Assembly: GCA_964552045.1 (NCBI GenBank)
Contig: CAZKFF010000001.1
Coordinates: forward strand, 64,120 to 128,119
Source: an uncultured Candidatus Saccharibacteria bacterium
Lineage (GTDB): Bacteria; Patescibacteriota; Minisyncoccia; Phycocordibacterales; UBA918
Direction: 5' to 3'
DNA: 64,000 nt
A program made the position numbers and the translations under genes. The notes below the pieces were generated by a model. It was not told where the DNA came from. It saw nothing but the letters and a program-made list of their open reading frames with translations, and made no database searches. Below, piece after piece: positions 6,634 to 57,500 of this stretch. How positions within the stretch are numbered: the first letter of the stretch is position 1; the number at the start of each line of letters is the position of its first letter.

Positions 6634-7497
6634 TTAATTGACAAAGATGATATACGCATCGTCAAGGTCGATCTCATCATTGATCCAATTGTATGCTCCC
6701 TGCGTGTAATAGGAACTCTGGGTGTAGTAAGACGTCTGGGTGTAGTAGGATGTCTGCGCATAATAATTTCCCTGGATGTAGTACGAGGTCTGCGCATAAT
6801 ATGAAGTCTGCGTGTAGTACGAGGTCTGCATATAGTACGAAGACTGCATGTAGTATGAACTCTGTACATAGTACGAACCCTGGGCATAGTACCCGGATTG
6901 TGAGTAGTACCCGCTTTGGCTGTAGTAGCCTGATTGCGAGTAGTACCCACTTTGGCTGTAGTACCCGCTCTGACCATAGTAGCCGCTCTGCCGATAGTAT
7001 CCTGACTGTGAGTAATACCCGCTCTGGCCGTAACCCGCATACGCAACCGGCAGGAACGAATCGTCTTCAAGGTTAAGCTCTTCTTCCCCGCATACATCGG
7101 TGTAGTTCCCGTTCCCTTCAGACTCCATGTTCTGGACAATGATGACATCCCTGGTTTCGCCATTGCATTCAAAATCAGAGAAATACCAATATCCGTAGTT
7201 GCTTTTATCTCCGAGTGGGTCTTTGTTTATTTCAGGCAAGAACGGAGCAAGTTCGTCATCGATCGCCTCCCCTACGCCTATCTCTACCCCGTCGCTGAAT
7301 TCAGGGTATTCACCGTTCGCTTCTTTGTAGAGGCGAACCCCGAGCTTGAGCTGTTCAAGGTCATTCACCCGCGCTGTATCACGCGCTTCTTTCCGTGCGT
7401 TGCTGAAAACAGTGAAGGCAAGCACTGCCAGAGTAATGATGATGCCGACAACAGTCATCACTTCAACAAGTGTAAAACCTGTTCTTCTCATTAGCAC
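6634..7497 (-). CDS. type IV pilin-like protein with C-terminal Tyr-rich pentapeptide repeat
   Basis: N-terminal class III (prepilin) signal RRTGFTLVEVMTVVGIIITLAVLAF. Conserved pilin-like core shared with the neighbouring gene. About 23 tandem copies of S-G/S/T-YY-x-Q. Confidence 0.75.
   Translation of the reverse strand: MLMRRTGFTLVEVMTVVGIIITLAVLAFTVFSNARKEARDTARVNDLEQLKLGVRLYKEANGEYPEFSDGVEIGVGEAIDDELAPFLPEINKDPLGDKSNYGYWYFSDFECNGETRDVIIVQNMESEGNGNYTDVCGEEELNLEDDSFLPVAYAGYGQSGYYSQSGYYRQSGYYGQSGYYSQSGYYSQSGYYSQSGYYSQSGYYAQGSYYVQSSYYMQSSYYMQTSYYTQTSYYAQTSYYIQGNYYAQTSYYTQTSYYTQSSYYTQGAYNWINDEIDLDDAYIIFVN
6690..7045 (-). repeat. 15-nt periodic coding repeat encoding (S-x-Y-Y-x-Q)n
   Basis: Visible 15-bp periodicity gtagta...ctg..., with synonymous and near-synonymous variation between units. 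Confidence 0.8.
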
Positions 7498-11170: not shown

Positions 11171-14100
11171 ATGGCCATATTCATGTCCCCCAAGCCCATC
11201 GAGTCCGAATTCGTCCATCTGCACGTGCATTCGCACTATTCCCTTCTTAATGCGATCCCGACTCCCAAAGAGCTCGCACAGGCGGCAAAGGAAGACGACC
11301 AGCAGGCACTTGCATTGACCGACGCCGGAGCGCTGTATGGCATCATCGACTTCTATAAAGCGTGTGCCAAAGAGGAGATCAGGCCTATCATTGGTCTTGA
11401 TGCGTTCCTCGCACCGCGGACACGCTTTGATAAGGAGCCGCTCGACAAACCGCGCGCTCGTCTGGTTTTGCTCGCAGAGAACGACGCAGGCTACAAGAAC
11501 CTCATCAAACTGGTCACGCTCTCGAACATTGAAGGCTTCTACTACCGCCCCCGTCTGGACCGCGAACTGCTGCAAACATATGCAAACGGGCTGTTCTGTC
11601 TGATCCCTTCATTCGCCGGAGAGACGTCTCAGCACTTGAAGAACAACGATCTCGAAAAAGCACAGGCCGATGCGGATTGGTACAAGAGTGTCTTCGGCGA
11701 TCACTGCTATCTTGAGATCACGCACCACCCCGAGATGCTCGAACATCAGGAACTGCAGGAGAAAATACGTGGGTTGAGCGAACGGTCCCGTATTCCGCTT
11801 GTTGCAGCGCACGATGTCTATTACCTCAACAAAGACGACGCCACCGCGCGTGAGGTGATGATCAAGATCCAGAACGGCGGCAGTGTTGACCCGCACGAAG
11901 AGCGCAGCGAGGATTTCTCGTTCATCACGCAGACGCAGGCAAAAGAATATTTCACAGACGTCCCCGAAGCGCTGCAGAATACCGTACGTATTGCAGAACA
12001 GTGTTTTGTCGATATCCCGATCGGTACAAAGTGGTACTTTCCCAACTACATCATTGAGAGCGGCAAAAAAGCAGACGAGGAGCTTCGTGAACGTGCATAC
12101 AAAGGAGTCGCCTGGCGCGGACATGACATCAATGACCCCGCCATCAAGGAGCGCCTCGACTACGAACTTGAGGTCATCAAGAACAAAGGCTATGCGAAGT
12201 ACTTTTTGACTGTAAGCGACCTGCTGCGTGAGGCGCGCGAACGAAAGATCCTCACCACCATTCGCGGATCAGTTGCCGGTTCGTATGCCACGTACGTGCT
12301 CGGCATCACGAACGTAGATCCACTTGAATATAAGCTCCCCTTTGAGCGTTTCTTGAACCCTGAGCGTCCTTCAGCGCCTGACGTCGATATGGACTACGCC
12401 GATAATCGGCGCGATGAGATCATCGAATACGCGAAGCAGAAGTACGGCGAAGATAAAGTGGCCCAGATCGGCACGTTCGGAACAATGATGGCTCGCGCGG
12501 CAGTGCGCGATGTTGCGCGCGCATTGGGCCATCCCTATTCGGTTGGCGACCGCATCGCAAAGCTCATTCCAATGGGAAGCCAGGGATTCCCGATGACGAT
12601 CAAACGCGCTCTGGAGATCGAACCGGAACTGAAAAAACTCTACAAGGCAGACAGCGAATCCCGCGATGTGCTTGACCTCGCACAGAAGATCGAAGGGCGC
12701 GCACGGCACGTGGGCGTGCATGCAGCTGGTGTGGTGATTGCACCCGAGCCATTGGACCAGTTTGTTCCTATACAACTCGATACCAAAACCGGCAAATACA
12801 TCACACAATATGAGATGCGCTCTGTCGGCGAAGACGGGGTCGGTCTCCTTAAGTTCGACTTCCTTGGCATCAAGAATCTCTCCATTCTGGCTGACGCCGT
12901 CAAACGCGTGAAGGCTATCCGCAATATTGATGTCGATATCGAAGACATCCCGCTTGATGATCCGAAGACGTTCAAGATGCTCGCCGCCGGGGAGACGATG
13001 GGGCTGTTCCAGCTCAACGGCTCAGGCATGACTGCATTCCTCAAGCAACTGCAGCCGTCATCGATTCATGACATCAACGCTATGGTCGCCCTGTATCGTC
13101 CGGGCCCGATGGAATCGATCCCGCAGTATATTGAGCGCAAGCACAACGCGAACCTCATCACCTATCTTGACCCGCGCCTGCAGAAGATACTCGACCGTTC
13201 GTACGGGGTGATCACCTATCAGGATGACGTCATGATGATCTCGATCGAGCTCGCCGGTTATTCATGGCTCGACGCCGACAAGCTCCGCAAAGCCATGGGG
13301 AAGAAGATTCCCGAGGTGATGGAGGCGGAAAAGGAGAAACTCATGAAAGGTTTTCTCGAATACGGGAAGCTCTCTCCTTCTGTTGCTGACAAGCTCTGGA
13401 GGCTCATCGAGCCATTTGCCGCGTATGGATTCAACAAAGCACATGCGGCCAGCTACGGACGGGTTGCATACCAGACCGCGTACATGAAAGCGAACTATCC
13501 CGAGGAGTATATGTCTGCGGTACTCACTGCCGACTCCGGAGATACGGAGAAGATCGCCGAGATCATCCACGAATGCGAACGCATGGGTATTGAGGTGCTG
13601 CCGCCGGATATCAACGAGAGCTTTGCAGCTTTCTCTGTGATACCCAACACGCAAAAGATACGCTTCGGCCTGACGACCATCAAGAATTTTGGCGCCGGAA
13701 TCGCAGAAGCGATCATTTCGGAACGCAAAGAGAATGGACCATTTGCTTCCCTCTCTGACTTCCTGACGCGCGTCCATGACAAAAATCTCAACAAGAAATC
13801 ACTTGAGGCGCTCATTATGGCGGGAGCATTCGACCGCTTTGAGGTGCGCGGCAAGATGTATGAGAACCTCGACACGCTCCTTGCGTTCAATAAGGAGCAC
13901 GTTGCCGGAAAGGAAGCAAACCAGGATTCGCTCTTCGGCGGACTTACCACCGCCATCAATATGCTTGTGCTTGCTGATGCTCCTGATGTGTCGCTTGAAC
14001 AGAAACTTTTGTGGGAAAAGGAGCTTTTGGGCGTGTATGTCTCCGGGCATCCGCTTGATCGGTTCAAAGAAGAGCTTTCCAAACGCTCGACCATACAGCA

Positions 14101-14404
14101 GATAAAGAATGACGGACGCAATGGCATTCCGGTAGTCACTGCCGGCATGATCGAGACAGTACGCGAACTGCTTACAAAGAAAGGAGACCGTATGGCCTTC
14201 ATTCAACTATCGAACCACGATGACACCATTGAGATGGTCGCATTTCCTGAGGTATTCCAGGCAAACCGCGAATTTCTTACGCCCGGCTCCTGTGTTGCAG
14301 TCAAAGGCAAGCTCAATATCCGTAATGATGAGCCAAGTATACTCGTTGATAAACTCAAGCTCCTCGGAGCCTCTCCAGTTGACGCAACACCTGAAACCGC
14401 CTAA
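11171..14404 (+). CDS. dnaE: DNA polymerase III alpha subunit
   Basis: 1077 aa. PHP domain start HLHVHSHYSLL. Conserved polymerase core (GLLKFDFLGIKNL, ITYQDDVMM). C-terminal OB region. An alternative start lies at 11183. Confidence 0.9.
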   Translation: MAIFMSPKPIESEFVHLHVHSHYSLLNAIPTPKELAQAAKEDDQQALALTDAGALYGIIDFYKACAKEEIRPIIGLDAFLAPRTRFDKEPLDKPRARLVLLAENDAGYKNLIKLVTLSNIEGFYYRPRLDRELLQTYANGLFCLIPSFAGETSQHLKNNDLEKAQADADWYKSVFGDHCYLEITHHPEMLEHQELQEKIRGLSERSRIPLVAAHDVYYLNKDDATAREVMIKIQNGGSVDPHEERSEDFSFITQTQAKEYFTDVPEALQNTVRIAEQCFVDIPIGTKWYFPNYIIESGKKADEELRERAYKGVAWRGHDINDPAIKERLDYELEVIKNKGYAKYFLTVSDLLREARERKILTTIRGSVAGSYATYVLGITNVDPLEYKLPFERFLNPERPSAPDVDMDYADNRRDEIIEYAKQKYGEDKVAQIGTFGTMMARAAVRDVARALGHPYSVGDRIAKLIPMGSQGFPMTIKRALEIEPELKKLYKADSESRDVLDLAQKIEGRARHVGVHAAGVVIAPEPLDQFVPIQLDTKTGKYITQYEMRSVGEDGVGLLKFDFLGIKNLSILADAVKRVKAIRNIDVDIEDIPLDDPKTFKMLAAGETMGLFQLNGSGMTAFLKQLQPSSIHDINAMVALYRPGPMESIPQYIERKHNANLITYLDPRLQKILDRSYGVITYQDDVMMISIELAGYSWLDADKLRKAMGKKIPEVMEAEKEKLMKGFLEYGKLSPSVADKLWRLIEPFAAYGFNKAHAASYGRVAYQTAYMKANYPEEYMSAVLTADSGDTEKIAEIIHECERMGIEVLPPDINESFAAFSVIPNTQKIRFGLTTIKNFGAGIAEAIISERKENGPFASLSDFLTRVHDKNLNKKSLEALIMAGAFDRFEVRGKMYENLDTLLAFNKEHVAGKEANQDSLFGGLTTAINMLVLADAPDVSLEQKLLWEKELLGVYVSGHPLDRFKEELSKRSTIQQIKNDGRNGIPVVTAGMIETVRELLTKKGDRMAFIQLSNHDDTIEMVAFPEVFQANREFLTPGSCVAVKGKLNIRNDEPSILVDKLKLLGASPVDATPETA

Positions 14405-18942: not shown

Positions 18943-19242
18943 ATGAAGCATTCCAGTATCGTACATGACGGTTCGCATGCGGCGATCAAGCTCCCGCGAA
19001 GGCTCTTGTCGAGCATCTGCCAGAACTTGGGCAGGCCCGGTCCAAGCTTCTCGCATGAGAAGAATGAGCTCGGCGGCATGCAGCTTCATGTCTACTGCAC
19101 CGACGACAGCGGCACAGTCACCACGGCGGTGCACGGGACCGTCAGGCGCGTCTCGCGCAAAAGCCTGCGCCGGTGGGCGTTCGTGGGCAGCCGCATCGAA
19201 GACCTCACATCGTTCGACGCGAAAAAACTGGTCCGCATCTGA
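18943..19242 (+). CDS. hypothetical protein (99 aa)
   Basis: GAGGGAGG RBS immediately upstream of the ATG at 18943. GC-rich. No known domain. Confidence 0.4.
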   Translation: MKHSSIVHDGSHAAIKLPRRLLSSICQNLGRPGPSFSHEKNELGGMQLHVYCTDDSGTVTTAVHGTVRRVSRKSLRRWAFVGSRIEDLTSFDAKKLVRI

Positions 19243-19313
19243 ATCGTTCCAGGACGCACGAAGAAGCCGAGCATATCTGCTCGGCTTTTCCTATGATCAC
19301 ATTGATACGCACG

Positions 19314-20039
19314 TTATCCGATGATCTTTATCGCTTTCATGATCGCCATCTTTACCGCATACTCCTCGTCAGTATACGTCCCGTCGAGCGCTGAAGTGAG
19401 CGCCCTGAGTATCTCCTGCAGCTGCTCCTCAGAAAGGCGGGAGCCTTCCTTTTTGAGCATCTCTGAAATGGCGGGGTCTTCCCCTTTCTTGAAGCGGTAG
19501 AGAGCATCAAGATCGGTGGTGGCATCCGCAAGCGCCACCATAGGACGATTACTGATCATCGTATATGAAGCGGTCGTATTTCCGGCAAGGATCGCCTCTG
19601 CGAGTGACCCCGATGTTATCGGCTCCTGGGAAAGGTCGATAGCCGTATCTGCTGTCATCTCTCCTTCTTCGGTATCCATTTCTGAAAGCAGCGTTTCCAT
19701 ACGCGCGAGATTGACGACCACCCACCCGTCTTCACTTGGGAACGATATCCGCGCTTGAGCGAGCACAGTATCGAGTGCTGAACCGCGCGCATCCTCTGAC
19801 GGTACCTTCCCGATGAAATAGCGCATCGCATCACTTGAGAGGAGTACCTTTTGCGCATGTGCCTGGTTCTCAAGCGAGGTAAGGGCGGCATCCTCGCTTG
19901 CAGGACTCATCGTATCGAAGTCGAATGCTCCTGTGGGCAGATCAACCGGACCCGCTGCAGCGTGTGTGACGGAATCAAGGTACGCTTCGGCGACCGGGGA
20001 TGCCCCCTCTACGCTTACATCAGTGTACGTGGTGTGCAC
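19314..20039 (-). CDS. acidic hypothetical protein, last gene of the sortase cluster
   Basis: 241 aa. GTG start with a GGGAG RBS 4 nt upstream. Begins 20 nt after the stop of the sorted surface protein. Asp/Glu-rich. Confidence 0.5.
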   Translation of the reverse strand: MHTTYTDVSVEGASPVAEAYLDSVTHAAAGPVDLPTGAFDFDTMSPASEDAALTSLENQAHAQKVLLSSDAMRYFIGKVPSEDARGSALDTVLAQARISFPSEDGWVVVNLARMETLLSEMDTEEGEMTADTAIDLSQEPITSGSLAEAILAGNTTASYTMISNRPMVALADATTDLDALYRFKKGEDPAISEMLKKEGSRLSEEQLQEILRALTSALDGTYTDEEYAVKMAIMKAIKIIG

Positions 20040-20059
20040 TGGCTCCCTGAATCTGAAGC

Positions 20060-21211
20060 CTAAGAAACCTTTTTTTTTATGACAACAATGTATGCTACGA
20101 AGAGTGCCCAGAGGGTGAGGAGACCGTAGAAGATGAAAGTGAGCACTGGACCGGCTTCAAATCCCGTATAGGGAACTTCCGTCAGGTAAATACTTCCGAC
20201 AACCGGCTTCTGATCGCGCGTCTCAAGAACGATGATCTCGCCCTCTACTTCTACTTCAACTTTACAGGTTCTATCCTTGCTGCCTCGCTCCGCTTCGAGC
20301 GTATAGGTAGTATCCTTTGTTGGACGCAGCTTGATCTCGCCGTCAAGGAAGTCCTTCTTATCCCTGCTTGAGAGATCATCGGTATCAACAAGCGTATTGC
20401 CGTGATTGTCCTTCAGAAGGATGTCGTACGCATTGGTAGTTTCCCACTCTAGCGTTATTTCTTTCCCCCTCTTTATTTTTTTCGCAGAGATGTCGAGATC
20501 ACACTTCGGCGTCTTTGATCCGCCTCCTCCGTATGAACCCTGTGAATAGTACGAACTCTGGCTGTAATTGTTATATGAGCCCTGCGAATAGTAACTGCTC
20601 TGGGAGTAGTAACTGCTTTGAGAATATGACGGCTCATCCACGACTACCTTAGCATTGCAGGTATCGTCATCACCGGTACCTTCGGCGGTGAGCTGGAAGG
20701 TCGTATCGTCTGTAACATGGACAACCTTTGTCCCGTTAGCATTCACTTCGCCAACGCCATTATCAATGGTGACTTTCGTTGCATTCGTGGTCTTCCAGGT
20801 GAGGGTCACATCGCCGCCGCCATTCGGAAGCGAAGATGGAGAGGCGGTAAAGAGATCACAGGATGCATTCGATACATATGACGACTGCGAATAGTACGAA
20901 CTTTGAGAGTAATAAGAACTCTGGGAGTAGTAGGAACTCTGAGAATAGTAATCACTCTGGGAGTAGTAGCTTCCCTGCGAGTAGTAGCTGCTCTGAGAAT
21001 AGTAATCGCTCTGAGAGTAATAAGAACTCTGGGAATAGTAATCGCTCTGAGAATAGTAATCGCTTTGCGAGTAACAACTGCCACAGCTGGTCTGAGCCTC
21101 TGCTGTACCCAGCAAAAGCGGAGAACCGGCGACATAGCTCAGTATCCCGAACACTGCAAAAAATACCAGTGCAGCGATAAGTGTCTTGTTGATTAATGTT
21201 GTCATATACAT
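20060..21211 (-). CDS. sortase-substrate surface protein with Tyr-rich repeats and two Cys-bounded beta-domains
   Basis: Signal peptide MTTLINKTLIAALVFFAVFGILSYVAGS. (S-D/S-YY-S-Q)n repeat blocks. C-terminal sorting signal VPYTG, then the hydrophobic stretch FEAGPVLTFIFYGLLTLWALFVAYIVVI, then KKK. The ORF track extends to 21382, but that start overlaps the upstream gene. Confidence 0.65.
   Translation of the reverse strand: MYMTTLINKTLIAALVFFAVFGILSYVAGSPLLLGTAEAQTSCGSCYSQSDYYSQSDYYSQSSYYSQSDYYSQSSYYSQGSYYSQSDYYSQSSYYSQSSYYSQSSYYSQSSYVSNASCDLFTASPSSLPNGGGDVTLTWKTTNATKVTIDNGVGEVNANGTKVVHVTDDTTFQLTAEGTGDDDTCNAKVVVDEPSYSQSSYYSQSSYYSQGSYNNYSQSSYYSQGSYGGGGSKTPKCDLDISAKKIKRGKEITLEWETTNAYDILLKDNHGNTLVDTDDLSSRDKKDFLDGEIKLRPTKDTTYTLEAERGSKDRTCKVEVEVEGEIIVLETRDQKPVVGSIYLTEVPYTGFEAGPVLTFIFYGLLTLWALFVAYIVVIKKKVS
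20512..20640 (-). repeat. coding repeat (S-S-Y-Y-S-Q)n block 2
   Basis: Second, shorter block of the same pentapeptide repeat: SYSQSSYYSQSSYYSQGSY... Confidence 0.75.
20863..21073 (-). repeat. coding repeat (S-D/S-Y-Y-S-Q)n block 1
   Basis: About 14 tandem 15-nt units. Confidence 0.8.
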
Positions 21212-21253
21212 GTAGTAAATAATATACCGCCCGAATCTCTTCGGATGCCAATA

Positions 21254-21325
21254 GTTGTGCATCGCACAACTGCTCGCATCCAAATTGATAGTGGTTCCGG
21301 ACGCAAGCATGGGTGCTTGCGTCCG
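21254..21325 (-). other. two stable hairpins in the intergenic region between the secreted-protein gene and the sorted-protein gene
   Basis: gttgtgc-atc-gcacaac has a 7-bp stem. ccggacgcaagca-tggg-tgcttgcgtccg has a 12-bp stem at 21298-21325. No clear U-tract. Confidence 0.4.
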
Positions 21326-21332
21326 AAGACCG

Positions 21333-21782
21333 TCAGACCGGCGAGTAGGACCACTCCTCTCCGCCGACCCGTTCCATGACATAGGTGCCGTCCTTCGTGA
21401 TCGCCGGAGTCGAGACCCAGCCGGTGTACTCCGGACAGGTCACATAGACCGCGATCCTGGTGCCGGATGTGACGAACTGGTCGCGGCACTGCGCGTTCTG
21501 CATCGTCGCGATGCGTTCGAACGTGCCGCGCTTGTAACGCAGGTGCACCACCCACTCGTTGGTTCCGTCAGGACGAGTGATGATCCGGTGCTCACGGTCT
21601 GTGAAGCAGACCGTGACCTTGATCGTAGGGTGCACATCGCTCTGCCCATGGTAGTGCGTTTCCGGCACAACCGGACACACGACCTTCTGGGCGCAGTTGT
21701 CAGCGAATGCCGGCGATGCGATCCCGAGCGAGCCGCCAAGCAGCAGTGAAGCAGCAAGGACGGCAGCAGCATACTTGGTCAT
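21333..21782 (-). CDS. secreted hypothetical protein (high-GC gene)
   Basis: Signal peptide MTKYAAAVLAASLLLGGSLGIASPAFA. Four Cys. About 62% GC against about 48% in the neighbours. Confidence 0.5.
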   Translation of the reverse strand: MTKYAAAVLAASLLLGGSLGIASPAFADNCAQKVVCPVVPETHYHGQSDVHPTIKVTVCFTDREHRIITRPDGTNEWVVHLRYKRGTFERIATMQNAQCRDQFVTSGTRIAVYVTCPEYTGWVSTPAITKDGTYVMERVGGEEWSYSPV

Positions 21783-22123
21783 TGAAATGCGCCTCCGTAG
21801 CGCTTCGTTGTGAAAGCAGCACCATGCCGCTTTCTGTTCAATGTGCGAAGCCTCCCGTCGTGGCAATACGGAAGCTCACCGAGCTTCCGTACATACACGT
21901 GGAGAGCTTGCTTGTAAGAAGACCAACCCATCGGTTCCAAAAAGAAAGCTCACCGCCTGTGTCTCCAGTATGCATGAGATAGATATTATTGAAGAGAAGT
22001 ACTTTCGAGATACTATACCCCAAAGAACTGAGCAATACTTCACTTTAGCCCATTTATGACAATTTGTCAAGAGCTCCGTTCAGCATTGATTATAAGGGCA
22101 CGGCAATGAGGTTTTTGTGAATT

Positions 22124-22807
22124 TTAGAGCTTTTTGGTCTCAATAAGAGACGCCTCAACGACGAAACGGTCGTCTTTTGAGCCGAAACTGTTGCAGGTTG
22201 CAAGCGTCAGCTTTGCCTTCCCCGGAGTTGCAGGCACAGCGACTTCACTCGCTTTTGCCTTGTACACATTCTGGACGCGATAAATATACTCCGCATCTGC
22301 AGAACGGACGCGGATCGTGTCTCCCCAGACCAGATTCTGGATACCGTTGAAAGCCTGAAAATTCTTGTTGAAGACAGTCGGCAGATAGCTCGAATGCCCG
22401 AGGATGAACATATTGCCCTTGGTCGTAAGATCAGCTGAATCAGGATGGCGCACAGCGCCGGAAAGAAGTGCAGCATCAAGGTCCGCAACTTCATCGGAAT
22501 CCGGGTTGAGTACGGGCACTTCTTTGCCCAGTGAATCGAATATGATGCTTGTCGGCAGCGCTGAGTGCGGTTCTTCTTCAACCACGGCAACTACGCGTTC
22601 TTCTGCTGGCTCTGTGTCCGATTCTTCAATCATCTCCGTATCTGTATCTTCTGTGGAGGCATCAGCTTTGTGCGGCTCAGGATAAAAATCAAGCGCAAAT
22701 AAAAGCCCGTACGTCATGAGCACGACGATGAAGAACACCACGAGAAATGGCGCACGGTTGACCTTTATTTGAGCATAGAGCTCTTCAAACAATTCACGTA
22801 TGTCCAT
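22124..22807 (-). CDS. sortase (transpeptidase) family protein
   Basis: N-terminal TM anchor. Catalytic His context NMFILGHS and the conserved TLxTC block KLTLATCNSF. Confidence 0.75.
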   Translation of the reverse strand: MDIRELFEELYAQIKVNRAPFLVVFFIVVLMTYGLLFALDFYPEPHKADASTEDTDTEMIEESDTEPAEERVVAVVEEEPHSALPTSIIFDSLGKEVPVLNPDSDEVADLDAALLSGAVRHPDSADLTTKGNMFILGHSSYLPTVFNKNFQAFNGIQNLVWGDTIRVRSADAEYIYRVQNVYKAKASEVAVPATPGKAKLTLATCNSFGSKDDRFVVEASLIETKKL

Positions 22808-23038
22808 AAAATAGTCACGACATAATACATTATTTTTGTCAAAAGTCAACCCTTTCCTGTTCAGGTGAAGGTTGACACTAGCTACATAATATGATATGGT
22901 TCATGTGTACTATTCCAATCGGCAATTGGATCTCGTTCTCACTACTTTTGCGTCCTTTTCCCTCAGTGTATGGGGGCTTTTGTGCAATTGCATTGAGGCG
23001 GCGGCGTACGATAACGTTAGTAATAGTTTTTAATTTTT

Positions 23039-24064
23039 ATGAATCAGGTATCAGAGGATAAGAAGACGACGCTCATGAAGGTTCTAGCCATTCTGGGCTT
23101 TCTGGCGATCATCATTCTCGCTGTGTGGCTTGCGGTGAAAATCGTAAGCGTCATACCGAGTGCATTCTCGTCTTTGGCTTCGCTCGCTGACAGCGTATAC
23201 AACTACGACCGCGAAGAGAAGCTCGAGGTAGCAACTGAGAACAGCGTGGTCAATGCTGGTGAGGCGTTCACCATCTCATGGACAAACATGCGGGAGAACG
23301 GTTCGTACACGTTCTCATACTCATGTATCGACGGAGTTTCGGTGGACATCCGCGATCAGGAGGGCACTATTGAAGCACTTGCCTGTGACACGCCGCTTGA
23401 TGTGCAGCATGAAACGTCGCTTGAGATCCGTATCTCATCGGAAAAATCACGATTCGTCGATGTTCCCTATACGATCACCTTTACCGCGAGCGATGAGGAA
23501 GGATCAGCTCTCTCAAGCAAATCCACTGTTACTATCGTCAATGCCACCATACCGACTTCAGGCCTAGTACAGGAAGAGCCTGAGGAAGAAGAGACAGTTA
23601 CACCGGAAGCAGCAAAGCCGGAAGCTGCTCCAAAAGCGCCGCGTTACACTCCAGGCACGCCTGTTGTCACCAAAAAGATAATCTACACCATCCCGGTGTC
23701 TGATCCGAATGGAACGATCGACCTCCAGGTCACCTATCTTGGTGCGGGTACGCTTTCACAGTTTGGCTTTATCAAGAAATCAAGCATTGATATTGATGAC
23801 CAGGGCGCAGTGCAGTTTGAGGTCAAGAACATCGGCACCAAAACTGCAGAAGACTGGGAATATGAAGCAGAGCTTCCCGGCGACATCACCTACTCATCAA
23901 ACGACCAGAAGGCTTTGAAGCCGAACGAACGTGCGGTTATTACCCTCGGATTTGAAGGACTCAGCAATGATGGTACAGAAAAAGTAAGCGTCGAGGTCAC
24001 CGCAAAGCATGACGTGAAGAAGTCGAACAATGACTTTACACACACTGTTAAGATCACTGACTAA
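23039..24064 (+). CDS. membrane-anchored extracellular hypothetical protein
   Basis: N-terminal TM LMKVLAILGFLAIIILAVWLAV. Acidic, Pro-rich linker. Beta-rich C-terminal region. Confidence 0.5.
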   Translation: MNQVSEDKKTTLMKVLAILGFLAIIILAVWLAVKIVSVIPSAFSSLASLADSVYNYDREEKLEVATENSVVNAGEAFTISWTNMRENGSYTFSYSCIDGVSVDIRDQEGTIEALACDTPLDVQHETSLEIRISSEKSRFVDVPYTITFTASDEEGSALSSKSTVTIVNATIPTSGLVQEEPEEEETVTPEAAKPEAAPKAPRYTPGTPVVTKKIIYTIPVSDPNGTIDLQVTYLGAGTLSQFGFIKKSSIDIDDQGAVQFEVKNIGTKTAEDWEYEAELPGDITYSSNDQKALKPNERAVITLGFEGLSNDGTEKVSVEVTAKHDVKKSNNDFTHTVKITD

Positions 24065-24072
24065 CATTAAAA

Positions 24073-24103
24073 AAAGCCGCAGGAGTGATCCGCGGCTTTT
24101 TTA
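24073..24103. terminator. bidirectional terminator hairpin
   Basis: aaaaagccgc-aggagtgatc-cgcggctttttt between convergent genes. Confidence 0.5.
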
Positions 24104-25492
24104 GCGCCCAAACCACAAAACCTTTTTGTCGGGATCCTGCTCTTCGGGGAAAAGCGCATTCCAGGTTGCCCGGTCCACTGTCCCTGGTATGACCTCGGAC
24201 TCAAGCATTTCCTTGCTGAAGACGCGCTGCTGAAAATCATATACCGCTTGTCGCGTGCCGGTGCCGTACAGTCCGTCAATTGCCACGCTTTCGTCCCCGT
24301 ACTCGTAGAGTGCCATCTGCACCTTTATGGTAAGCGCTCTTTTTTGCGGAGCCTCAGCCTCATCGAGTTCCATTGAGATGATCGTCTTGACCGTATCGAG
24401 CATAGCGCCGACCACTTCCGGCCCATGAATAAGGACGATGGTGTACTTTTCCCCGCTTGGCGACATCCGGTCTATGGCACCCCATTCGATGCCCGAAGGC
24501 ATGCGCACTCCAGCAGCACAGTCGCGGTCAAGGAACACCGGCGAACCGGAAATGCCCTCAAGGTCGTAGGCATTTTGCTTCTGGTCACCGTTGGAATCGT
24601 TCATCTTTGTGAGGAACGCATACGAAGACAAGAATGCTTCCTCGTATTCTCTGCTCGCGCGTGCTCCGAACAGCGCCTCTTTTTCATCTGTGGTTAGCAA
24701 CCCTTCTGTCACCTTGAATACGACGCCGGAGAGGATGTCGGTCCCGTCACTTGCCCTGCCTCTCCGTTCATGGATCGAGGGGATATGCACGAGATTGCCG
24801 CTGATATCCTCTGACGCTTTCCTCCTATCCCACTGCAGCTGTACCTTGTCTATCTCCTCTTTTCCTTCTTCGTTGGTGACCAACTCCGATACCGCGCACC
24901 CGCCGATATCCTCCCTTCCCCCCAGAAGTTCACAGCGGAACGAATGCTCCATGACGTGCTTATTGGCGATGAGTGCGTCATTAACAAAAAATCCGTTACT
25001 GTATCCCGCAAGATACATGTCTTCATTATTGCGCTGATGCGCAAAGCGGATATGGGGAATGCGATCCTTTCCCTCATGCCTGATCTGTACCGACGGCCAT
25101 GATCCGCCCTCGCGGAAAAAACCCTCACGGTCAACCTCTGAACCCTCCAGAACAGAGCGGTCGGTGACCGGTATTCCTTCCTCTCCTTCAAGGATGCTCC
25201 AGATCTCCTCTTCAGTTATATCGATCCGGGCGAGTTCCATCTTCAATTGCTTCAGTCGGGCTTCGTATGCACGGATCGACCCCACCAAATCCTCGGCGTT
25301 TTCTGGCGAGAACGGCGACGCCTCAGCACCGTGCACGCCTGAGACACCCAATGCGCTTGCTGCAGCCAAAGCACCAGCTCCCTTTAAGAACTGGCGTCTT
25401 TGAAGACCCTGTGCATTCAGCTCATGAGCGTTATCCGCTGTCTTTGAGGTGCGGGGCGTATCTTTTTTAAAGAAAAGGCTTTCAAATCCCAT
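24101..25492 (-). CDS. Tat-secreted trypsin-like serine-protease-like protein with C-terminal peptidoglycan-binding domain
   Basis: Twin-arginine signal RRQFLKGAGALAAASALG. GISGSPVF resembles the S1 catalytic-Ser motif GxSGxPV. C-terminal LTIKVQMALYEYGDESVAIDGLYGTGTRQAVYDFQ resembles a PG_binding_1 repeat. Confidence 0.55.
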   Translation of the reverse strand: MGFESLFFKKDTPRTSKTADNAHELNAQGLQRRQFLKGAGALAAASALGVSGVHGAEASPFSPENAEDLVGSIRAYEARLKQLKMELARIDITEEEIWSILEGEEGIPVTDRSVLEGSEVDREGFFREGGSWPSVQIRHEGKDRIPHIRFAHQRNNEDMYLAGYSNGFFVNDALIANKHVMEHSFRCELLGGREDIGGCAVSELVTNEEGKEEIDKVQLQWDRRKASEDISGNLVHIPSIHERRGRASDGTDILSGVVFKVTEGLLTTDEKEALFGARASREYEEAFLSSYAFLTKMNDSNGDQKQNAYDLEGISGSPVFLDRDCAAGVRMPSGIEWGAIDRMSPSGEKYTIVLIHGPEVVGAMLDTVKTIISMELDEAEAPQKRALTIKVQMALYEYGDESVAIDGLYGTGTRQAVYDFQQRVFSKEMLESEVIPGTVDRATWNALFPEEQDPDKKVLWFGR

Positions 25493-49119: not shown

Positions 49120-50355
49120 TTATGTCTCCTGCGAGGTCGGCAAGACCTTGACCGTTGCCTCAGCCGATCGCGTTGTGGAGCCAAGTGTGCATTCGAGCGT
49201 GTACGTTGATTCCGAAGTGATGCCGACCACTGTTCCCTCTCCTTTAACCTCTGTTACAGACATGCCAGGGCCTTTCACGGTACAATTTTCCGCATTGCCT
49301 CCGTCCCAAGTGACCGTCACCTCACCTCCATAACGGATAAGTCCAGGCACAGCACTGATAGATATGTTGGACATCGTCAATGGATTATCTACCGCACAAG
49401 ACAAGTAGGTATATGCGCTGCTGCCGGAAAGTGTACCGTCGGTACAGGTACGGTTTATTGAGCTGCATGTTTCGCCGTCCGGAACCAGATTTTCATCGTA
49501 CAGTTTGCGGGTCGAACCATCGGCTATAGTGACGCCATTGACCGAACAATCTCTTTTGACCGTCGGGGTCGGCGACGAAGGCTGCGCTGGCGTCTGCGTT
49601 GCTGGTGTCGGGGTTGTCTTTGGAGTTGTTTTCGGCGTCGGTGCCGGGTCAATGGTACATGAGGAGTACTTGAACTTGTTCTTTCCGGAAAGATCGCCAT
49701 CGTCACATGTGCGTTTTATGAATTCGCATGTCTTTCCATAGTCAACATTCCGGTCCTTGTAGAATTTCCTCGATTTCCCGTCCTTTACCGTGACGCCATC
49801 AAGTTTGCAATCCTTCGGTTTTTCGCACACGAGCTCAGTGGTGCTCCAGGAGAAGAAGAATAATTGGTGCTTTACTGTCTTCTGTTCGCACCAGCTCTCC
49901 TTATAACAGGTTCCTTGGTAGAGGACGTATCCATTTTTACATTGCGGCGTCGGTGTGCGGGGTGTGGGATTATTCGGCGTCGGATCATCATTATTCAAAC
50001 CACAGGGGTCGTTTGGACCAGAACAGGCACTCGGTGTGCCACCATATGAGGCCTCTGAGGGACTCTGCGAGTATGAACCCTGACGGTAATATGAACTCTG
50101 CGAATACCCACTGGGAAGTGTCGCAGATATGGGCGAGGGAACGCCGAAACCTGTATCTGTTCCGGTTAAACCACCCGCATTGCATGACGGACAGCCCGAA
50201 TCAGAGAGTGCACCCGATGGATTGCCCGCCGTGCCACTATTGACCAGTGCCCGCTGATCCTCGTCGGTAAGCCGCGCGTTAGCAATTATGGGCATCGCGT
50301 ATAGCAATACGAGGGCGAAGCAAATGTAAACGTACGGACGTAAATATTTATTCAT
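49120..50355 (-). CDS. secreted Cys-rich protein with tandem Cys-bounded domains, Pro/Thr linkers and a short Tyr-rich S-Y-Y-x-Q segment
   Basis: Signal peptide MNKYLRPYVYICFALVLLYAMPIIANA. SGYSQSSYYRQGSYSQS. Two homologous modules C..DGVT..DG..RK.Y.....G.TC....RTC.DG.LSG. Linker TPKTTPKTTPTPATQTPAQP. C-terminal beta-domain ending C-T-L-G. Confidence 0.55.
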   Translation of the reverse strand: MNKYLRPYVYICFALVLLYAMPIIANARLTDEDQRALVNSGTAGNPSGALSDSGCPSCNAGGLTGTDTGFGVPSPISATLPSGYSQSSYYRQGSYSQSPSEASYGGTPSACSGPNDPCGLNNDDPTPNNPTPRTPTPQCKNGYVLYQGTCYKESWCEQKTVKHQLFFFSWSTTELVCEKPKDCKLDGVTVKDGKSRKFYKDRNVDYGKTCEFIKRTCDDGDLSGKNKFKYSSCTIDPAPTPKTTPKTTPTPATQTPAQPSSPTPTVKRDCSVNGVTIADGSTRKLYDENLVPDGETCSSINRTCTDGTLSGSSAYTYLSCAVDNPLTMSNISISAVPGLIRYGGEVTVTWDGGNAENCTVKGPGMSVTEVKGEGTVVGITSESTYTLECTLGSTTRSAEATVKVLPTSQET

Positions 50356-51599: not shown

Positions 51600-54500
51600 C
51601 TATATTTCGCCGCCGCCGCCGCCACCGCCGCCGCCTGCCTGGGTATACGGCTTTACCTGAATGGCATCGACCTTGACCGTATTCTGATCCGGCTGGTCAA
51701 TGACACGGACGAAGAAGTTGCCGCCTGAGAGGTCACTTGGACTCCAGCTGCGGCCCCAGGTATCGGACGCACCGCCGAGCGTATAGACTGCGTCGCTTCC
51801 CGTGAGCACGGATGTTGCCTTTGTCGCCGTCACACTTTCGTCGCCATTCCAGGAAAGTGCCACCTGAATCGTTCCCGCCCCGGTTGAACCGGACGCTTCA
51901 AGCTTCACTTCGATACCGGTCACCGTATTCCCTGCCGGCACATTGAAGCCGAAGACACTGTACGACTGACGAAGGTCCGCCGATGCAGCCGTTGCGTAGA
52001 CGTCGTCGGAGGTAAGCGCATTGCTGCCGTTTGTCCACTCATTGTAGAGTTCTCCGGTTGCGGTCGGCGCTTTGAAGCCGGGTTCGTTGCCAATCTGCTC
52101 TCCATTATCCTCTTCCCCTACTCCGCCGCCGCCGTTGTTGCCGCCGCCGCCGATGTCACCATCACCTTCTGGTGCATCGTCTCCCACTTCAGCGCTGAAG
52201 AGACTGCCGCCGCCCTTATTGCCGCCGCGGATATGCTGCACTGAGGTCACACCTCCGAGCGGGACAACAACTCCTTCAGTCGTCGCGCCCGTGCCGGTAA
52301 CACCGTTACGATTGAGGTCAATGGTCAGATACTCATTGGTATGTACGCCCGTGACATCTCCCGTAAGGACATAGTCTTTGGTCGTCGTTGCATCCCATGA
52401 TGTTGAGAATGTTATTGTCCCTGATTGTCCCGTGATGGCTAACACGCCAGTGCCGCCGATCTGGTTGTCAGAAGCGTCTGCCGTACCGTTGCTGTTATTG
52501 TCGCGGTAGAGCTTAAAGTCCCCAATATTACTGCTATCGATACGATGGATGCCGGAGAGTGTAAATACAGCTGACGTGATCGTTGCATTCTCTCCAACAG
52601 GTGCAAGATTAAAGGCAAACAATGGTTCGTCGCTCTTGTTCTGGTAGCTGAATGCATTGTCGATCTGACCAGCGGTGTGATCTGCAAGGTTTGCTGCACC
52701 ATAGATAGCCACAGTCTTATCATCATGAACGCCAGTAGCTGCCACAGGATCAAGTGTATAAGCGTTGATATCGTCACCCGTATAACCCATCACATAGAGC
52801 GTGGTACCGTCGTTGTTGAAGAGTGCCGCAGCAGGAGCAGATTCCTGTGCGGCGACCGAGAACGCGATCTCGTCGAAGGTCGCCGTTGAGATGTCGTACG
52901 GAGTGGAGAGCGTATAGGCATTGATGTCTTGTCCTGTTAAGCCCACAACATACAATACAGTACCGGTGTTGTTGAAGAATATATCAGAGGGGGCGTTTTC
53001 TTCTGAAAGGACCGAGAACGCGATCTCGTCGAAGGTCGCCGTTGAGATGTCGTACGGAGTGGAGAGCGTATAGGCATTGATCTCCCCACCAGATGCTTGC
53101 ACAACATACAGGACGGTACCGGTGTTGTTGAATTCCATATCATAGGGGAAGGATCCCTCTGCCGAAACCGAGAACGCGATCTCGTCGAAGGTCGCCGTTG
53201 AGATGTCATACGGAGTGGAGAGCGTATAGGTATTGATGTCGAGACCAGAAGTACCCATCACATAAAGAACGGTGCCGGTGTTATTGAAGAGCATTGAACG
53301 GGGGTTGATTTCCTGTGCGGCGACCGAGAGAGCGATCTCGTCGAAGGTGGCAGTTGAGATGTCATACGGAGTGGAGAGCGTATAGGCATTGATGTCATCA
53401 CCGGTAGAACCCATCACATAGAGCGTGGTACCGTTGTTGTTGAAGAGCATTGCACGAGGAGCGTCTTCTTGTGAAGAGACAGAAAGGGAGATTCCATTGA
53501 AGATGGCAGTTGAGACATCGTATGAACCTGACTCTTGATCAACAACAAACGACAGCGTCGATGTTGGCGCAGCAAGTGCGTTAAATTGTGTAAATGAAAG
53601 CCCCGAAATAGTGAGGGTATCCCCTCCTGAGAAGTCATTCGAGACGGGTACGACGAGTGTGGCACCGCTGTCCTCATACGAAACAGGATTAGAGACTTTG
53701 CCTGAGGCGGTTCCTCCAAAGACTGCAGTGGTATCGGTCGTATCCCACTTCATATTTGTCTTTGTAGTGTCAATGGTAATACGAAGGTCATTCGCTGCCG
53801 TAATCGTCGGGGTCTCGGCGTCGGTTATGGTAATGGCGGCAATAGACGTGGTCGCCTGGCCGTATCCAAAGATCTGGTTCGATGCTGAGGAAATCGTCCC
53901 CGCCCCGCCTCCACCTGCTGGCGCTGTGATGTCCCAGCAGTCGTTATTGCCGCTGTCGGTCGAGCTGGCTGCAGTGATGGTGCTTGCGCTGTCGCATGCG
54001 TTTGAGTCCATCACATCGACATACGTAACGGATATCTGGGTATCTGCATCGAGGCCCCACTGGGTTCCGTCCTGTGTTGAACGGAGTACGATCTCGTCAT
54101 TCTCTGCGCCGTCTATCTGTATAGAGGCGAAGGTTGAGGTCGCATCCGCAGGGAATTCCAGAGTAATACCGGGAGTGATCGCTACCAATTTTGCAGCCTC
54201 TACCGGATCAGTGAAGGTGGTGACCGGAACTCCGCCAGTATTGCCGGGCGAAGTCATCACGAGATCGGTACCAGATTGCGCTACCGCAACAAACGTACCG
54301 TTGCCGTAGGTCACTGACCGCCAAGAACTCGCTGCTCCTTCTTGTCGAGCAGTCCACGTGATTCCGTCAGGCGAGGTCATCACTTGATCAGTGCCACCGA
54401 GAGATACCGCAACAAACAGGCCGTTGCCGTAGGAAACGGAATGCCAGAAGGAAGCTTCTGTCGCCGAATGCGAGGTCCACGTGATGCCGTCCTCTGAGCT

Positions 54501-57500
54501 CATGACTCGGTTGGTGCCGGCTTGCGCGACGGCCACGAACGTGCCATTGCCATGCACCACGGAAATCCATGAACTTGCTTCAGCAGCACGTGCCGTCCAG
54601 GTGATGCCGTCAGGAGAGGTCATGACGCGGTTGGTGCCATCTTGAGAAACAGCGACAAATAAGCCATCGCCGTAGGTTACAGAAGTCCATGTGTTCGCCT
54701 CCGTTGCGGATCGTGCCGTCCACGTAATGCCGTCAGGAGAGGTCATGACGCGGTTGGTGCCGTCGGAAGAAACAGCGACAAACAGGTCGTCGCCGTAGGT
54801 GACTGATCGCCACTGGTTCGCTTCTGCGGCTGTGCGTACAGTCCAGGTAATGCCGTCGGGCGAGGTCATGACGCGGTTGGTGCCATCTTGAGAAACAGCA
54901 ACAAATAAGCCATCGCCGTAGGTGACTGATCGCCACTGGTTCGCTGCTGCGGCTGTGCGTGCAGTCCAGGTAATGCCGTCGGGCGAGGTCATGACGCGGT
55001 TGGTGCCCGTGAGTGCTACCGCGACGAACTGGCCGTTGCCGTAGGTGACTGAGTGCCACTGGTTCGCTTCTGCGGCTGTGCGTACTGTCCATGTTTGTCC
55101 GCCTTCGACCACTGGCGTATCCACTGAAGCGACCTCAAGCGTACCGAAGCTGGAGCTGCCGGTCAGGTTCCCACTGAAGGTTTGTGTGCCTCCATGTATG
55201 GTCGTCGTACCGTTCCCCCAGTCTATGGTCCCATTGTTCTCATAATCACCCGCAATCGAGAACTGCGACGGTGCTGTTACATACGTGTCCTCTGTAATGC
55301 TCAAGTCACTGGTCGAAGCATTGTTGGCAAACACCACTTCGCCGAGGAGCTCCCCGTCTGCAGAAGTCATGACGCAGTTTGTGGTACAGGTCGCTCCTGC
55401 GCTTGTCTGCTGTGCAATCGCGACAAATTTATTTTCTCCGTAAACAATATCCCACCATTTATTGACATTTATCGATGCGCGAGGTGTCCAATTTGCTCCA
55501 TTGTCACTAGAGGTCATGATCTGGTTTGTGCCGTCAGGTGAGACCGCAACAAAGAGGCCGCCGCCGTACGTGACTGACTGCCAGCTGTTCGCTTCATATC
55601 CGCTCGATACAATACTCCATGTGATGCCATCCTCTGAGGTCATGACATTATCATAGGCAACCGCGACAAACGTGCCACCGCCGTATCCCAAGCCGTACCA
55701 TGTACTACCCGGCACATTGCGCGATGTCCACGTGATGCCGTCGGGCGAGGTCATGACCAGATCGGTCCCCGTCGATGCGATCGCCACGTAGAGGCCTTCT
55801 CCGTAGACCACTCTCTCCCATTTGTTTGCCGCCGCAGCAGTACGTGCAGTCCACGTGATGCCGTCGGGCGAGGTCATGACGCAGCTGGTGCTGCAGGTGG
55901 CCGTACCATCGATATTGTTGTGGGCAATCGCAACAAACTGCCCTCCTCCATACGTTACCGAGTACCATTCGTTCTGCGCAGCTGCTGACCTGTTGGTCCA
56001 CGTGACTCCGTCAGGTGAGGTCATCACCTGATTGGTGCCGTTGCCAGCAACCGCAACAAACAGGCCTTCGCCATAGGTCAGGCTATTCCACGAGTTCGCC
56101 TGCGATGCTGAACGAGAGGTCCACGTGATGCCGTCAGGCGAGGTCATGACGCGGTTGGTGCCCGTGTATGCAAGCGCAACAAATGTGCCGTTGCCGTAGG
56201 TTATCGCAGACCAGGTACTGTTCTCCGATTGATTTTGTGCTGTCCAGTTCGCCCCGTCCGGTACGAACAGCTGCGGGGCATCAATGGTAATATCGTTGAA
56301 TGCCGAGCTTCCCGTCATGTTGCCCGAGAGAGTTGTCGTACCCGTGTAGGTTGTGGTTTCTGAGTAATCAAGACTGTACGGGAAAATATCCGAGGCAGAC
56401 TCTCCGTGGACATACATCTTCGAACCGTCGGGTTTGAACTCAAAACCATCAGGGAAGTCCTCCTGACTCGTAACCGAGATTGAAGTTCCGTCATATACTG
56501 CCGTGGTGACATCCCACGGGGTTGAAAGCGTGTATGGGGAGATATAGTCGTTGAGATAACCGCTGACGAACATCTTCGTTCCATCGTCGTTGAAGGCCAC
56601 ATCCTGGATATTCGTCTGCTGTGTATTGACCGAGAAGGACTTGCTGTCGTAGCTCGCACTTGAGATATCCCACGGGGTTGAAAGCGTATACGAATAGACC
56701 CGATTGTTTGCATCACCGCCGATGTACATGCGCGTGCCATCCTGCTTGAAGGTCATACCGAATGGTGTTGCATCCTGCGTCGTTACTGAAAAACTGACAC
56801 TGTCGTAGCTTGCTGTGGTGACATCCCATGCAGAAGACAGTGTGTACTGGAAGACGCGGTCATTGCCGGAACCGAGCGCAAACATCTTCGTACCGTCGCT
56901 TGAGAACGAGACTTTTTCGACAAAGCTATCCTGGGATGCAGTTGAGAATTCATTGACGTAACTCGCTGTGGTGACATCCCATGCAGAAGACAGCGAGTAT
57001 TCGGCAACGGCATCGCTGTTGTAGCCGTTGATGAAGAATTTCGTGCCGTCAGGCTTGAATGCGAGGCTTGTCACCTGCGACTCCTGCGAGGTCACCGAGT
57101 ACGCCACACCATCATAGGTTGCGGTGGTGATGTCCCAACTGGCAATCGCTGTTGTTGACGCTGTGGTGGTCCCGACAATATAGGTGAGGCCGCTTCCGCT
57201 GTCGAAGGTGCCGTTATTGGTGTAGTCGCCGGTTATGGTGAGCACCTCCGGCGCTTCCACAGTCGCGCCCGAAGCGATCGTAAAGTCGCTCGTCGAGGCA
57301 TTATCAGAGAACGTCTTAGTGCCATTTCCGGAGAAAGAGACTGCATTGAATGCGCTCGATCCGGTCATGCCGCCCGAAAACGCTTGTATGCCTGAACCGT
57401 CGAAATTGACGATACCGTTATGATGCGCGAAGACGCCGGTGTTCGCATAGTCGCCAGAGATCGTCAATTCAGCCGGAGCGATAAGCGTCGTCTGTCCGCC

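Follow-up and report, generated by a model that had tools for sequence, protein, structure and literature searches.

A putative dedicated sortase-substrate pair with a substrate gene probably recoded at a conserved A9 tract

Introduction

Dedicated pairs of one sortase and one substrate are known in bacteria, for example, SrtB-IsdC and the 'marine' sortase of class GN, which has one target gene beside it (NCBIfam model TIGR03784). The canonical LPXTG sorting signal is well defined (PMC4617865), and sortases are reported to be enriched in bacteria of the Candidate Phyla Radiation (CPR) (PMC6744442). Certain unrelated genes yield a short and a long product from one coding region, as in dnaX, by slippage on an A9 run in Thermus thermophilus and by a -1 frameshift on A_AAA_AAG in E. 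coli (PMC1088944). In Shigella mxiE, a non-templated nucleotide added at a T9 homopolymer restores the long product (PMC1088944), while a report on Citrobacter rodentium describes poly-A slippage in tssM, which encodes a membrane protein with two length variants (PMC4256274). The locus described here lies on the minus strand (19264-22849) of a 64-kb stretch of contig CAZKFF010000001.1, the whole of which is referred to as the window, and carries a sortase gene, a gene for a surface protein ending in VPYTG and an acidic open reading frame (ORF) that continues the surface protein in the -1 frame.

The best explanation of this locus, to which a probability of roughly 0.6 is assigned, is that it encodes a dedicated sortase-substrate pair, the substrate gene of which yields two isoforms, one short and one long, through recoding at an A9 tract by transcriptional slippage or -1 frameshifting. 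The host group would be the Paceibacteria (Parcubacteria), as judged from the titles of related genome records, which belong to metagenome-assembled genomes (MAGs) of Paceibacteria, Kaiserbacteria and Nomurabacteria; these taxonomic labels are taken as given, although 'Saccharibacteria', as used by some binning projects, looks like a generic label. All four minus-strand ORFs listed in the original prediction (the TLATC sortase, a small secreted protein, the VPYTG surface protein and the acidic protein) are present, but their description as 'four co-oriented genes' holds only in part, as the acidic ORF is the C-terminal domain of the surface-protein family, placed in the -1 frame.

A sortase outside the described classes

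The sortase ORF (22124-22849) opens at a TTG codon (22849) and contains KLTLATC. Its true start is placed at the ATG at 22807, because the resulting 227-aa product is identical to the database protein P0006 and the TTG lies inside a promoter-like TTGACT-16 nt-TATTAT element (22822..22849, minus strand; 10/12 matches in a consensus scan, a pattern match only). The gene (22124..22807, minus strand) encodes an N-terminal transmembrane (TM) anchor, an acidic linker and a catalytic domain that matches Pfam PF04203 over residues 105-235 (67.2 bits, E=1.5e-18; the gathering score is 26.6). Its His138, Cys205 (in TLATC) and Arg214 are invariant in 23 homologues (alignment A1) and align with the GHN, TLITC and KR-Y Arg elements of B. 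anthracis SrtA (2kw8). The sortase proposed from the TLATC motif is, by these comparisons, a genuine one (PF04203, peptidase family C60) with its catalytic triad in place, and activity on VPYTG is predicted.

A class, which the original prediction had suggested determining, could not be assigned, since every NCBIfam sortase model (classes A-F and GN) scored below its cut-off: class E, the best, reached 37.8/160, followed by SrtD (33.1/140), class D (29.5/165), class C (25.1/160), class GN (22.9/158) and class F (15.2/166). Homologues are numerous (1732 matches at E<=1e-5), the best 120 being 51-100% identical, and the enzyme forms a separate, highly conserved clade outside the known classes, for which an identity of 57-79% among the 120 best matches is also given.

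The substrate and its PYTG module

The surface protein is encoded as a zero-frame ORF of 381 aa (20060..21205, minus strand), which starts with MYMTTLINK as in its homologues and not at the ATG at 21382. It is composed, in this order, of a signal peptide, YY-S-Q repeats, a first immunoglobulin (Ig)-like domain (20639-20863), further YY repeats, a second Ig-like domain (20243-20500), a conserved stalk, the VPYTG motif (20162..20176), a TM helix (20079..20149) and KKKVS before the stop codon; all lie on the minus strand, and the C-terminal end reads ...LTEVPYTGFEAGPVLTFIFYGLLTLWALFVAYIVVIKKKVS up to the stop (longer stretch, ...GSIYLTEVPYTGFEAGPVLTFIFYGLLTLWALFVAYIVVIKKKVS). The (S-D/S-YY-S-Q)n blocks are recovered by Tandem Repeats Finder with periods of 18/36/54 at 20885-21078. 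In the AlphaFold2 (AF2) model of a 274-aa segment, the Cys-bounded segments are predicted beta-sandwiches (predicted local distance difference test, pLDDT, ~90 for residues 8-82 and ~87 for 129-214) that match tandem Ig domains in Foldseek at E ~1e-6; disorder is predicted for the YY repeats and for the stalk on either side of VPYTG, and a TM helix for the tail (residues 246-273). The VPYTG, TM and KKK tail, the YY repeats and the two Cys-bounded segments noted earlier are hence all found, the latter as predicted Ig-like beta-sandwiches. Neither Gram_pos_anchor nor LPXTG_anchor matches the protein, no other Pfam or NCBIfam model does so at E<=0.1, and a second sorting signal of the TM plus basic-tail type is found nowhere else in the window.

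The YY repeat had been said to be common to the substrate and a pilin, and indeed a prepilin-like ORF (6634-7497, minus strand; N-terminal GFTLVEVM) carries ~25 tandem (S/G/T)YY(S/A/T)Q pentapeptides of this type at its C-terminus. Another ORF (49120-50355) carries one short copy of the YY repeat (GYSQSSYYRQGSYSQS) along with Cys-rich and Ig-like segments.

The substrate family was gathered via 80 sortase-centred loci, which were scanned by a PYTG pattern; word-indexed searching with the last 151 aa as query had returned 5 close relatives only. As the pattern itself demanded P, Y, T and G, the invariance of these four is partly circular, while conservation of the flanks is independent of it. 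A same-strand PYTG gene is located downstream of the sortase in 62/80 loci, that is, in 62 of the 66 informative loci; 14 of the 18 loci lacking PYTG have less than 2.6 kb of downstream flank, mostly at contig ends, which is below the median sortase-to-motif distance. The motif resides in a near-invariant GI(S/A)L(T/S)QVPYTGFEAGP module, for which the longer consensus is D-Q-x-P-L-V-A-G-I-S-L-T-Q-V-P-Y-T-G-F-E-A-G-P-x-L-T-x-x-F-Y-x-L-L-x-x-W-A-L-x-x-A-Y-x-L-V-I-R/K-R/K. Across 70 distinct family sequences, the residue before PYTG is V in 93% (V/I/T, 93/3/3%; also A), the residues following it are F (96%), E (83%), A (97%), G (97%) and P (93%), and the T, FY, W and AY positions of the TM helix are conserved at 96-99%. 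The layout after the motif is a 5-residue spacer, the TM helix and RR/KK.

Related DNA of ~1.45 Mb holds 15 ORFs of at least 150 aa with a TM and a basic tail, of which 11 contain PYTG, an excess over chance, and no recurrent LPXTG-like alternative tail was found in it. True C-terminal PYTG-TM-RRKK tails are present at locus L004 (two adjacent genes) and at L036 (one), indicating from the sequences that some genomes hold several PYTG substrates outside the sortase locus. With these tailed proteins of related genomes and an intact catalytic triad, neither of the grounds on which the original prediction could have failed was borne out. The first L004 gene (9-1082, plus strand) encodes a very Asp/Tyr-rich protein of 357 aa with a run of more than 20 Asp and an APYTG-TM-RRKKTI end, and it is followed directly by the gene for a PYTG-tailed Ig-like protein.

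The xPxTG pentapeptide is present on the extracellular side as VPYTG, and a classical tail (hydrophobic segment and short basic end) is seen in the zero-frame product (TM and KKKVS), in L004 and in L036. The 'textbook' sorting signal of the original prediction stands for this zero-frame product but not for most relatives, in which the module is internal and 140-330 further residues follow the TM (275-330, or 139-200 in a shorter subfamily). The homologues with tails of 139-200 aa were considered as further split genes and rejected as such, no continuing ORF or A-run being found after them; they form a truly shorter subfamily. Taken together, [V/I/T]PYTG is the likely cognate signal of this sortase, at which cleavage would take place. 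A VPYTG motif in this context was found in no paper searched.

The acidic ORF as the cytoplasmic domain of the substrate family

The annotated acidic ORF (19314-20039, minus strand) begins with a GTG exactly 20 nt past the TAG of the surface protein (20060-20062), the distance given in the original prediction, and is preceded by AGGGAG (AGGGAG-N3-GTG). Over its whole length it is homologous to the C-terminal region of fused proteins (blastp E down to 5e-69, 45-57% identity); in one alignment, its residues 2-240 match a 286-residue tail at positions 44-285. Profile searching with the domain retrieved 487 representative clusters at E<=1e-3, and among the best 150 of these, ~108 are proteins of 350-1900 aa with the domain at the extreme C-terminus, while ~40 are short standalone calls. 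Because the acidic ORF matches the C-terminus of fused homologues, it and the surface protein represent one ancestral gene.

The AF2 model of the domain (mb88dd683d08a; 54 sequences) shows two mainly helical modules with a pLDDT of 87.9 and a predicted template-modelling score of 0.77. The pLDDT is ~62 at residues 1-45 and >90 afterwards, so that the fold starts ~45 residues past the GTG. No Pfam match and no sequence-level link to a solved structure were obtained, the best being OSCP at E=0.57, which is taken as noise. Among known structures, DNA polymerase III tau matches best, at 15% identity and at fold level only. Tau is itself a product of dnaX, an A-run recoded gene; this match is probably a coincidence and is mentioned as a curiosity, not as evidence. 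The likeness extends, again at fold level, to the AAA+ lid and clamp-loader collar domains (DNA polymerase III tau, delta and delta', RFC and the N-terminal domain of Pol epsilon B). Unlike these families, to which it does not belong, the window domain shares 12-16% identity with them and lacks the P-loop ATPase core of an AAA+ clamp-loader subunit, nor is there an AAA Pfam match. Its role, as suggested by the model, is probably in protein-protein interaction or oligomerisation.

The A9 tract and the -1 frame

The two halves of the gene meet at GTT GTC ATA AAA AAA AAG GTT TCT TAG, in which an A9 tract (20070-20078, minus strand; T9 on the plus strand) contains the heptamer A_AAA_AAG in phase. 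It is the sole A/T run of at least nine in the window. From the tract, the -1 frame (19314..20078, minus strand) reads KKK GFLGFRFREP VHTTYTDV... and passes without a break into the acidic ORF. The tract lies where the two frames overlap, and the 'GFLGF.F' of this linker corresponds to 'ILGFSLAG', which follows the TM in frame in fused homologues.

An exact A9 with the downstream domain in the -1 frame is present in 18/18 split loci examined (~12 distinct genomes; L001-L003, L086/L087 and L088/L089 are the same populations in different metagenomes). The tract occupies three positions in the disordered linker: directly after the TM, +95 nt from PYTG (L001-L003, L005, L006, L088/L089, L054, L075, L103, L122 and L123); ~20 residues after the TM, +150-174 nt (50-58 residues) from PYTG (L012, L021, L028 and L085); and +296 nt (~99 residues) from PYTG (L086/L087). 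In 1.42 Mb, A/T runs of at least nine number 23, and 20 of them fall within this linker, each exactly nine long. The tract starts at codon position 3 in the window, 1 in L122, L123, L085 and L012, and 2 in L086. Since the codon phase varies by locus in this way, the conserved thing is the run itself and not the phased heptamer. Two of the 20 runs are in frame, in the fused genes L009 and L032, where gain or loss of one A leads to a stop 1-7 codons past the lysine run; slippage would there give a short classical tail.

A coding pattern of substitutions in the -1 frame is seen upstream of the GTG as well. Between the A9 and the GTG, the window and its closest relative, L005, differ at 7 nt; 6 of these changes fall on third positions of -1-frame codons, 5 being synonymous and 1 conservative. 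Of the features by which dnaX- and mxiE-type genes are recognised, a slippery site at the junction of two ORFs (at least nine A or T, or an X_XXY_YYZ heptamer), conservation of site and frame among orthologues with diverging flanks, coding selection downstream and orthologues with a single ORF are found here. The trans-frame peptide GFLGFR / FREPVHTTYTDVSVEGASPVAEAYLDSVTHAAAGPVDLPTGAFDFDTMSPASEDAALTSLENQAHAQK can arise only by the shift. At the second position, the zero-frame peptides after A9 are similar between L012, L028 and L085 (KKKLQMLAAKHSHQPWNPQF, ...MLAAKHSHQPWNPQM and LQMLSQKYSGQNHRW, each ending at a stop); this similarity may reflect the overlap with the conserved -1 frame, or the tail of the short isoform could be under selection. 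Recoding of this substrate was found in no paper searched.

Proposed mechanism

In the proposed mechanism, the membrane-anchored sortase would recognise the extracellular [V/I/T]PYTG (predicted target peptide, GISLTQVPYTGFEAGP), located five residues before the conserved TM in a variable Ig-repeat protein, and would cleave after the Thr, so that the ectodomain becomes attached to the wall. Members of the substrate family normally run on past the TM into a ~250-aa helical domain that is presumably cytoplasmic. In the window this domain lies in the -1 frame, with A9 placed exactly at the KKK stop-transfer; standard decoding would hence yield the short protein with its classical VPYTG-TM-KKKVS tail. 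Addition of one A on the tract by RNA-polymerase slippage would restore the ancestral long form ...VIKKKGFLGFRFREPVHTTY..., with ...IVVIKKKGFLGFR... as the junction peptide across A9, and the identical long product would result if ribosomes shifted by -1 on A_AAA_AAG. The tract may set the ratio of the two isoforms from one gene, like dnaX tau/gamma or mxiE. Because all the A9 sites lie upstream of the folded part, the switch would include or exclude the whole domain.

With regard to the level of the shift, three points favour transcriptional slippage over ribosomal shifting: the tract is independent of codon phase, its length is fixed at nine and no stimulatory structure accompanies it. Nine is the threshold run length for slippage in many bacteria, and slippage on 9A or 9T has precedents in Thermus dnaX, Shigella mxiE and insertion sequence (IS) elements (PMC1088944). 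No Shine-Dalgarno-like sequence is visible upstream of A9.

Some of the observations weigh against the proposed pair and its recoding. A stimulatory RNA structure 3' of the tract was not found (RNAalifold over five site-1 junctions gave -2.7 kcal/mol and no convincing covariation), and Rfam gave no match in 19000-23200 at E<=1; for want of both, classical, stimulated -1 programmed ribosomal frameshifting is not supported. The window has a plausible independent start for the acidic ORF in AGGGAG-N3-GTG. We know of no natural sortase substrate with a large cytoplasmic domain, and none was found in the literature searched, because of which cleavage of the long form is an extrapolation. The strong conservation of the TM could point to a role of the module besides, or instead of, sorting. 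Further, a lysine run is expected after a TM anyway and A-runs are mutational hot spots, so that the recurrent fission could partly be a mutational bias.

A more far-reaching version of the mechanism, offered here tentatively, treats the internal module itself as the sorting signal. Cleavage at VPYT|G would then part the hypervariable Ig-repeat ectodomain, which goes to the wall, from the conserved TM and the lid-like domain, which would stay behind, the sortase acting as a sheddase, with programmed slippage on a selected A9 tuning the ratio of precursors without and with the domain in several lineages.

Alternative explanations

The rival that survives best, though it is improbable, holds that the surface protein is a complete classical substrate and that the acidic ORF is independent, with its own GTG and Shine-Dalgarno sequence, i.e. 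a fixed fission without recoding. It can call upon the AGGGAG lying 3 nt before the window GTG, upon the gene callers that annotate standalone proteins of 180-285 aa in many contigs, and upon the fold, which begins far enough past the GTG for an internally initiated product to fold. The start itself is not conserved, however: the GTG is GTC in L005, and in L001 and L006 no start codon occurs in the -1 frame before codon 78 or 87, which falls within the conserved LENQAH...SSDAMR region; none of these three has a Shine-Dalgarno sequence before the -1-frame start. In the -1 frame, the stretch from A9 to GTG encodes a conserved peptide, a homologue of the 'ILGFSLAG' linker that fused proteins have in frame, and its substitutions are synonymous in that frame. 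Independent initiation is judged unlikely because the GTG is not conserved and because the coding pattern extends upstream of it; it would, moreover, leave the exact A9 at three different positions unexplained.

Slightly less probable still is the view that PYTG-TM is the juxtamembrane and TM module of a signalling or structural protein that merely adjoins the sortase, which would act on unlinked substrates. The unusual conservation of the TM helix, the large cytoplasmic domain of most members, unlike any described sorting signal, and the lack of a match to Gram_pos_anchor or LPXTG models all speak for it. On the other side, P, T and G occupy the positions of the pentapeptide that sortase signals require, V/I/T takes the place of L, and the flanks, which the search pattern did not select, are conserved with the spacer, TM and RR/KK expected of a signal. 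The adjacency to the sortase in 62/66 informative loci, the lack of alternative LPXTG-like tails in 1.45 Mb and the existence of short PYTG-TM-RRKK proteins (L004 and L036) argue likewise for a sorting role.

The third rival, improbable as well, is phase variation at the DNA level, in which A9 <-> A10 changes during replication would switch the cytoplasmic domain in subpopulations. Homopolymer tracts in surface genes of small-genome, host-dependent bacteria are classical switches, and both in-frame (L009 and L032) and out-of-frame states of A9 exist in the family; besides, selection on a run cannot separate slippage in replication from that in transcription (Baranov et al., PMC1088944). Against this, junctions with A8 or A10 were not seen in consensus assemblies, which would hide minority alleles, and all the 20 tracts of the gene are exactly nine. 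The A9 recurs in 3 independent run-level assemblies of the window organism and in replicate samples of the populations L001-L003, L086/L087 and L088/L089. Among the 120 closest database proteins, none has the -1 linker in frame after the TM, i.e. no A10-type allele is seen, while the read-through signature ..KK[KS][GS]FLGF.. stands at the start of 11 distinct 90% clusters. A scan of metagenome contigs for A>=8+GGTTTCYTAGG gave 32 loci with one family member (L103, A9) and is uninformative on phase variation.

Lastly, an artefact of homopolymer sequencing or assembly, or a recent inactivating frameshift in a dying gene, is very improbable: homopolymers are error-prone in some chemistries and reduced genomes gather poly-A frameshifts, but the same state is met with in many independent assemblies and assemblers and in genomes whose sortases are only 50-80% identical, and each half is still 45-57% identical, along its entire length, to intact homologues.

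Other features of the locus and its neighbourhood

Between sortase and substrate lies the gene of the small secreted protein (21333..21785, minus strand; 150 aa with several Cys), for which the high GC content and secretion claimed originally were borne out by a signal peptide (MTKYAAAVLAASLLLGGSLGIASPAFA) and a GC of 61.6%. The GC at third codon positions (GC3) is 77.5%, against 47-55% GC and 53-65% GC3 in its neighbours. The protein is clade-specific: tblastn detects homologues at the same position only in L005 (78%), L001 (69%) and L088/L089 (42%), along with a weak match in L037 (27%, E 2.7e-6), and profile searches gave no Pfam or NCBIfam match. In other lineages, different small genes (130-185 aa) are located between sortase and substrate. 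A 'PEYTG' in the small protein was considered as a second sortase motif and rejected for its P-x-x-T-G spacing and the lack of a TM after it.

The gap between the sortase stop and the small gene is 338 nt long (21786-22123) and holds a promoter-like TTGACA-17-TAAAGT (22070-22042). Directly 3' of the small gene, a perfect 11-bp hairpin, GGACGCAAGCA-CCCA-TGCTTGCGTCC (21299..21324, minus strand), may mark a transcript end or a processing site; no T-tract follows it. Because of this hairpin after the small gene and the promoter-like site before it, a single four-gene operon is not evident, and the cluster may comprise three transcription units instead. A second hairpin, AAGCCGAGCA-GATA-TGCTCGGCTT (19264..19287, minus strand), lies 3' of the cytoplasmic-domain ORF and is terminator-like, its T-tract being weak.

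The sortase has two conserved, syntenic neighbours, a divergently transcribed gene (23039-24064, plus strand) for a 341-aa membrane-anchored protein with Ig/DUF11-like segments and a gene (24101-25492, minus strand) for a 463-aa protein with a twin-arginine translocation (TAT) signal and a PG_binding_1 domain. Both of these also flank the L001 sortase, and a 350-aa gene flanks it in L085-L089, which suggests a wider cell-envelope gene neighbourhood adjoining thrS, dnaE and gyrB. The window dnaE (11171-14404, 1077 aa) is of normal length, and in a 1.08-Mb relative (L085 9020-12597, minus strand) an intein, matched by Pfam Intein_splicing and LAGLIDADG_3, interrupts the dnaE adjacent to the cluster. 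A giant ORF of 3696 aa (51600-62690, minus strand) in the window has no PYTG-type tail.

Significance

Substrates of CPR sortases and their motifs are not known to have been described before, and the present analysis defines a near-universal candidate substrate of Paceibacteria together with its recognition module. The hypervariable anchored ectodomain is a prime candidate for contact with a host or partner in these presumed symbionts, and the role in adhesion or episymbiosis put forward in the original prediction is plausible. A cytoplasmic domain as the usual state of the substrate falls outside the textbook sorting-signal model; if true, an internal-signal sortase would couple surface display to a cytoplasmic process. 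The conserved A9 makes programmed slippage directly testable in a lineage of uncultivated bacteria with reduced genomes; if true, no earlier recoding event would have been described for CPR bacteria or for any sortase substrate. The reading further implies a correction of annotation, as in hundreds of database entries one gene is divided between a 'surface protein' and a 'hypothetical protein'.

Comparison with known systems

The window system resembles LPXTG and housekeeping sortases (classes A, D and E) in its enzyme, a cysteine transpeptidase that is anchored in the membrane and has the His/Cys/Arg triad along with TLxTC, and LPXTG substrates in the N-terminal signal peptide, xPxTG, short spacer, hydrophobic helix and basic residues. 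It differs from them in that VPYTG is embedded within a long invariant module, the sortase is classless and the signal is internal in most members. As in the SrtB-IsdC and class GN pairs, one sortase is linked lineage-wide to one cognate substrate with a non-canonical motif, whereas the setting in Patescibacteria, the motif itself, the cytoplasmic domain and the putative recoding tract are peculiar to the present pair.

The likeness to dnaX lies in the A9 / A_AAA_AAG within a coding region and, for L009 and L032, in a dnaX-like in-frame state in which slippage would truncate the product. In the window, by contrast, standard decoding would give the short product and slippage the long one; Shine-Dalgarno or hairpin stimulators are not seen, and the gene is unrelated. 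With mxiE and tssM the locus shares two overlapping ORFs that would be joined by an insertion in a homopolymer, but it belongs to another protein family, and its configuration is conserved across many species and at three positions.

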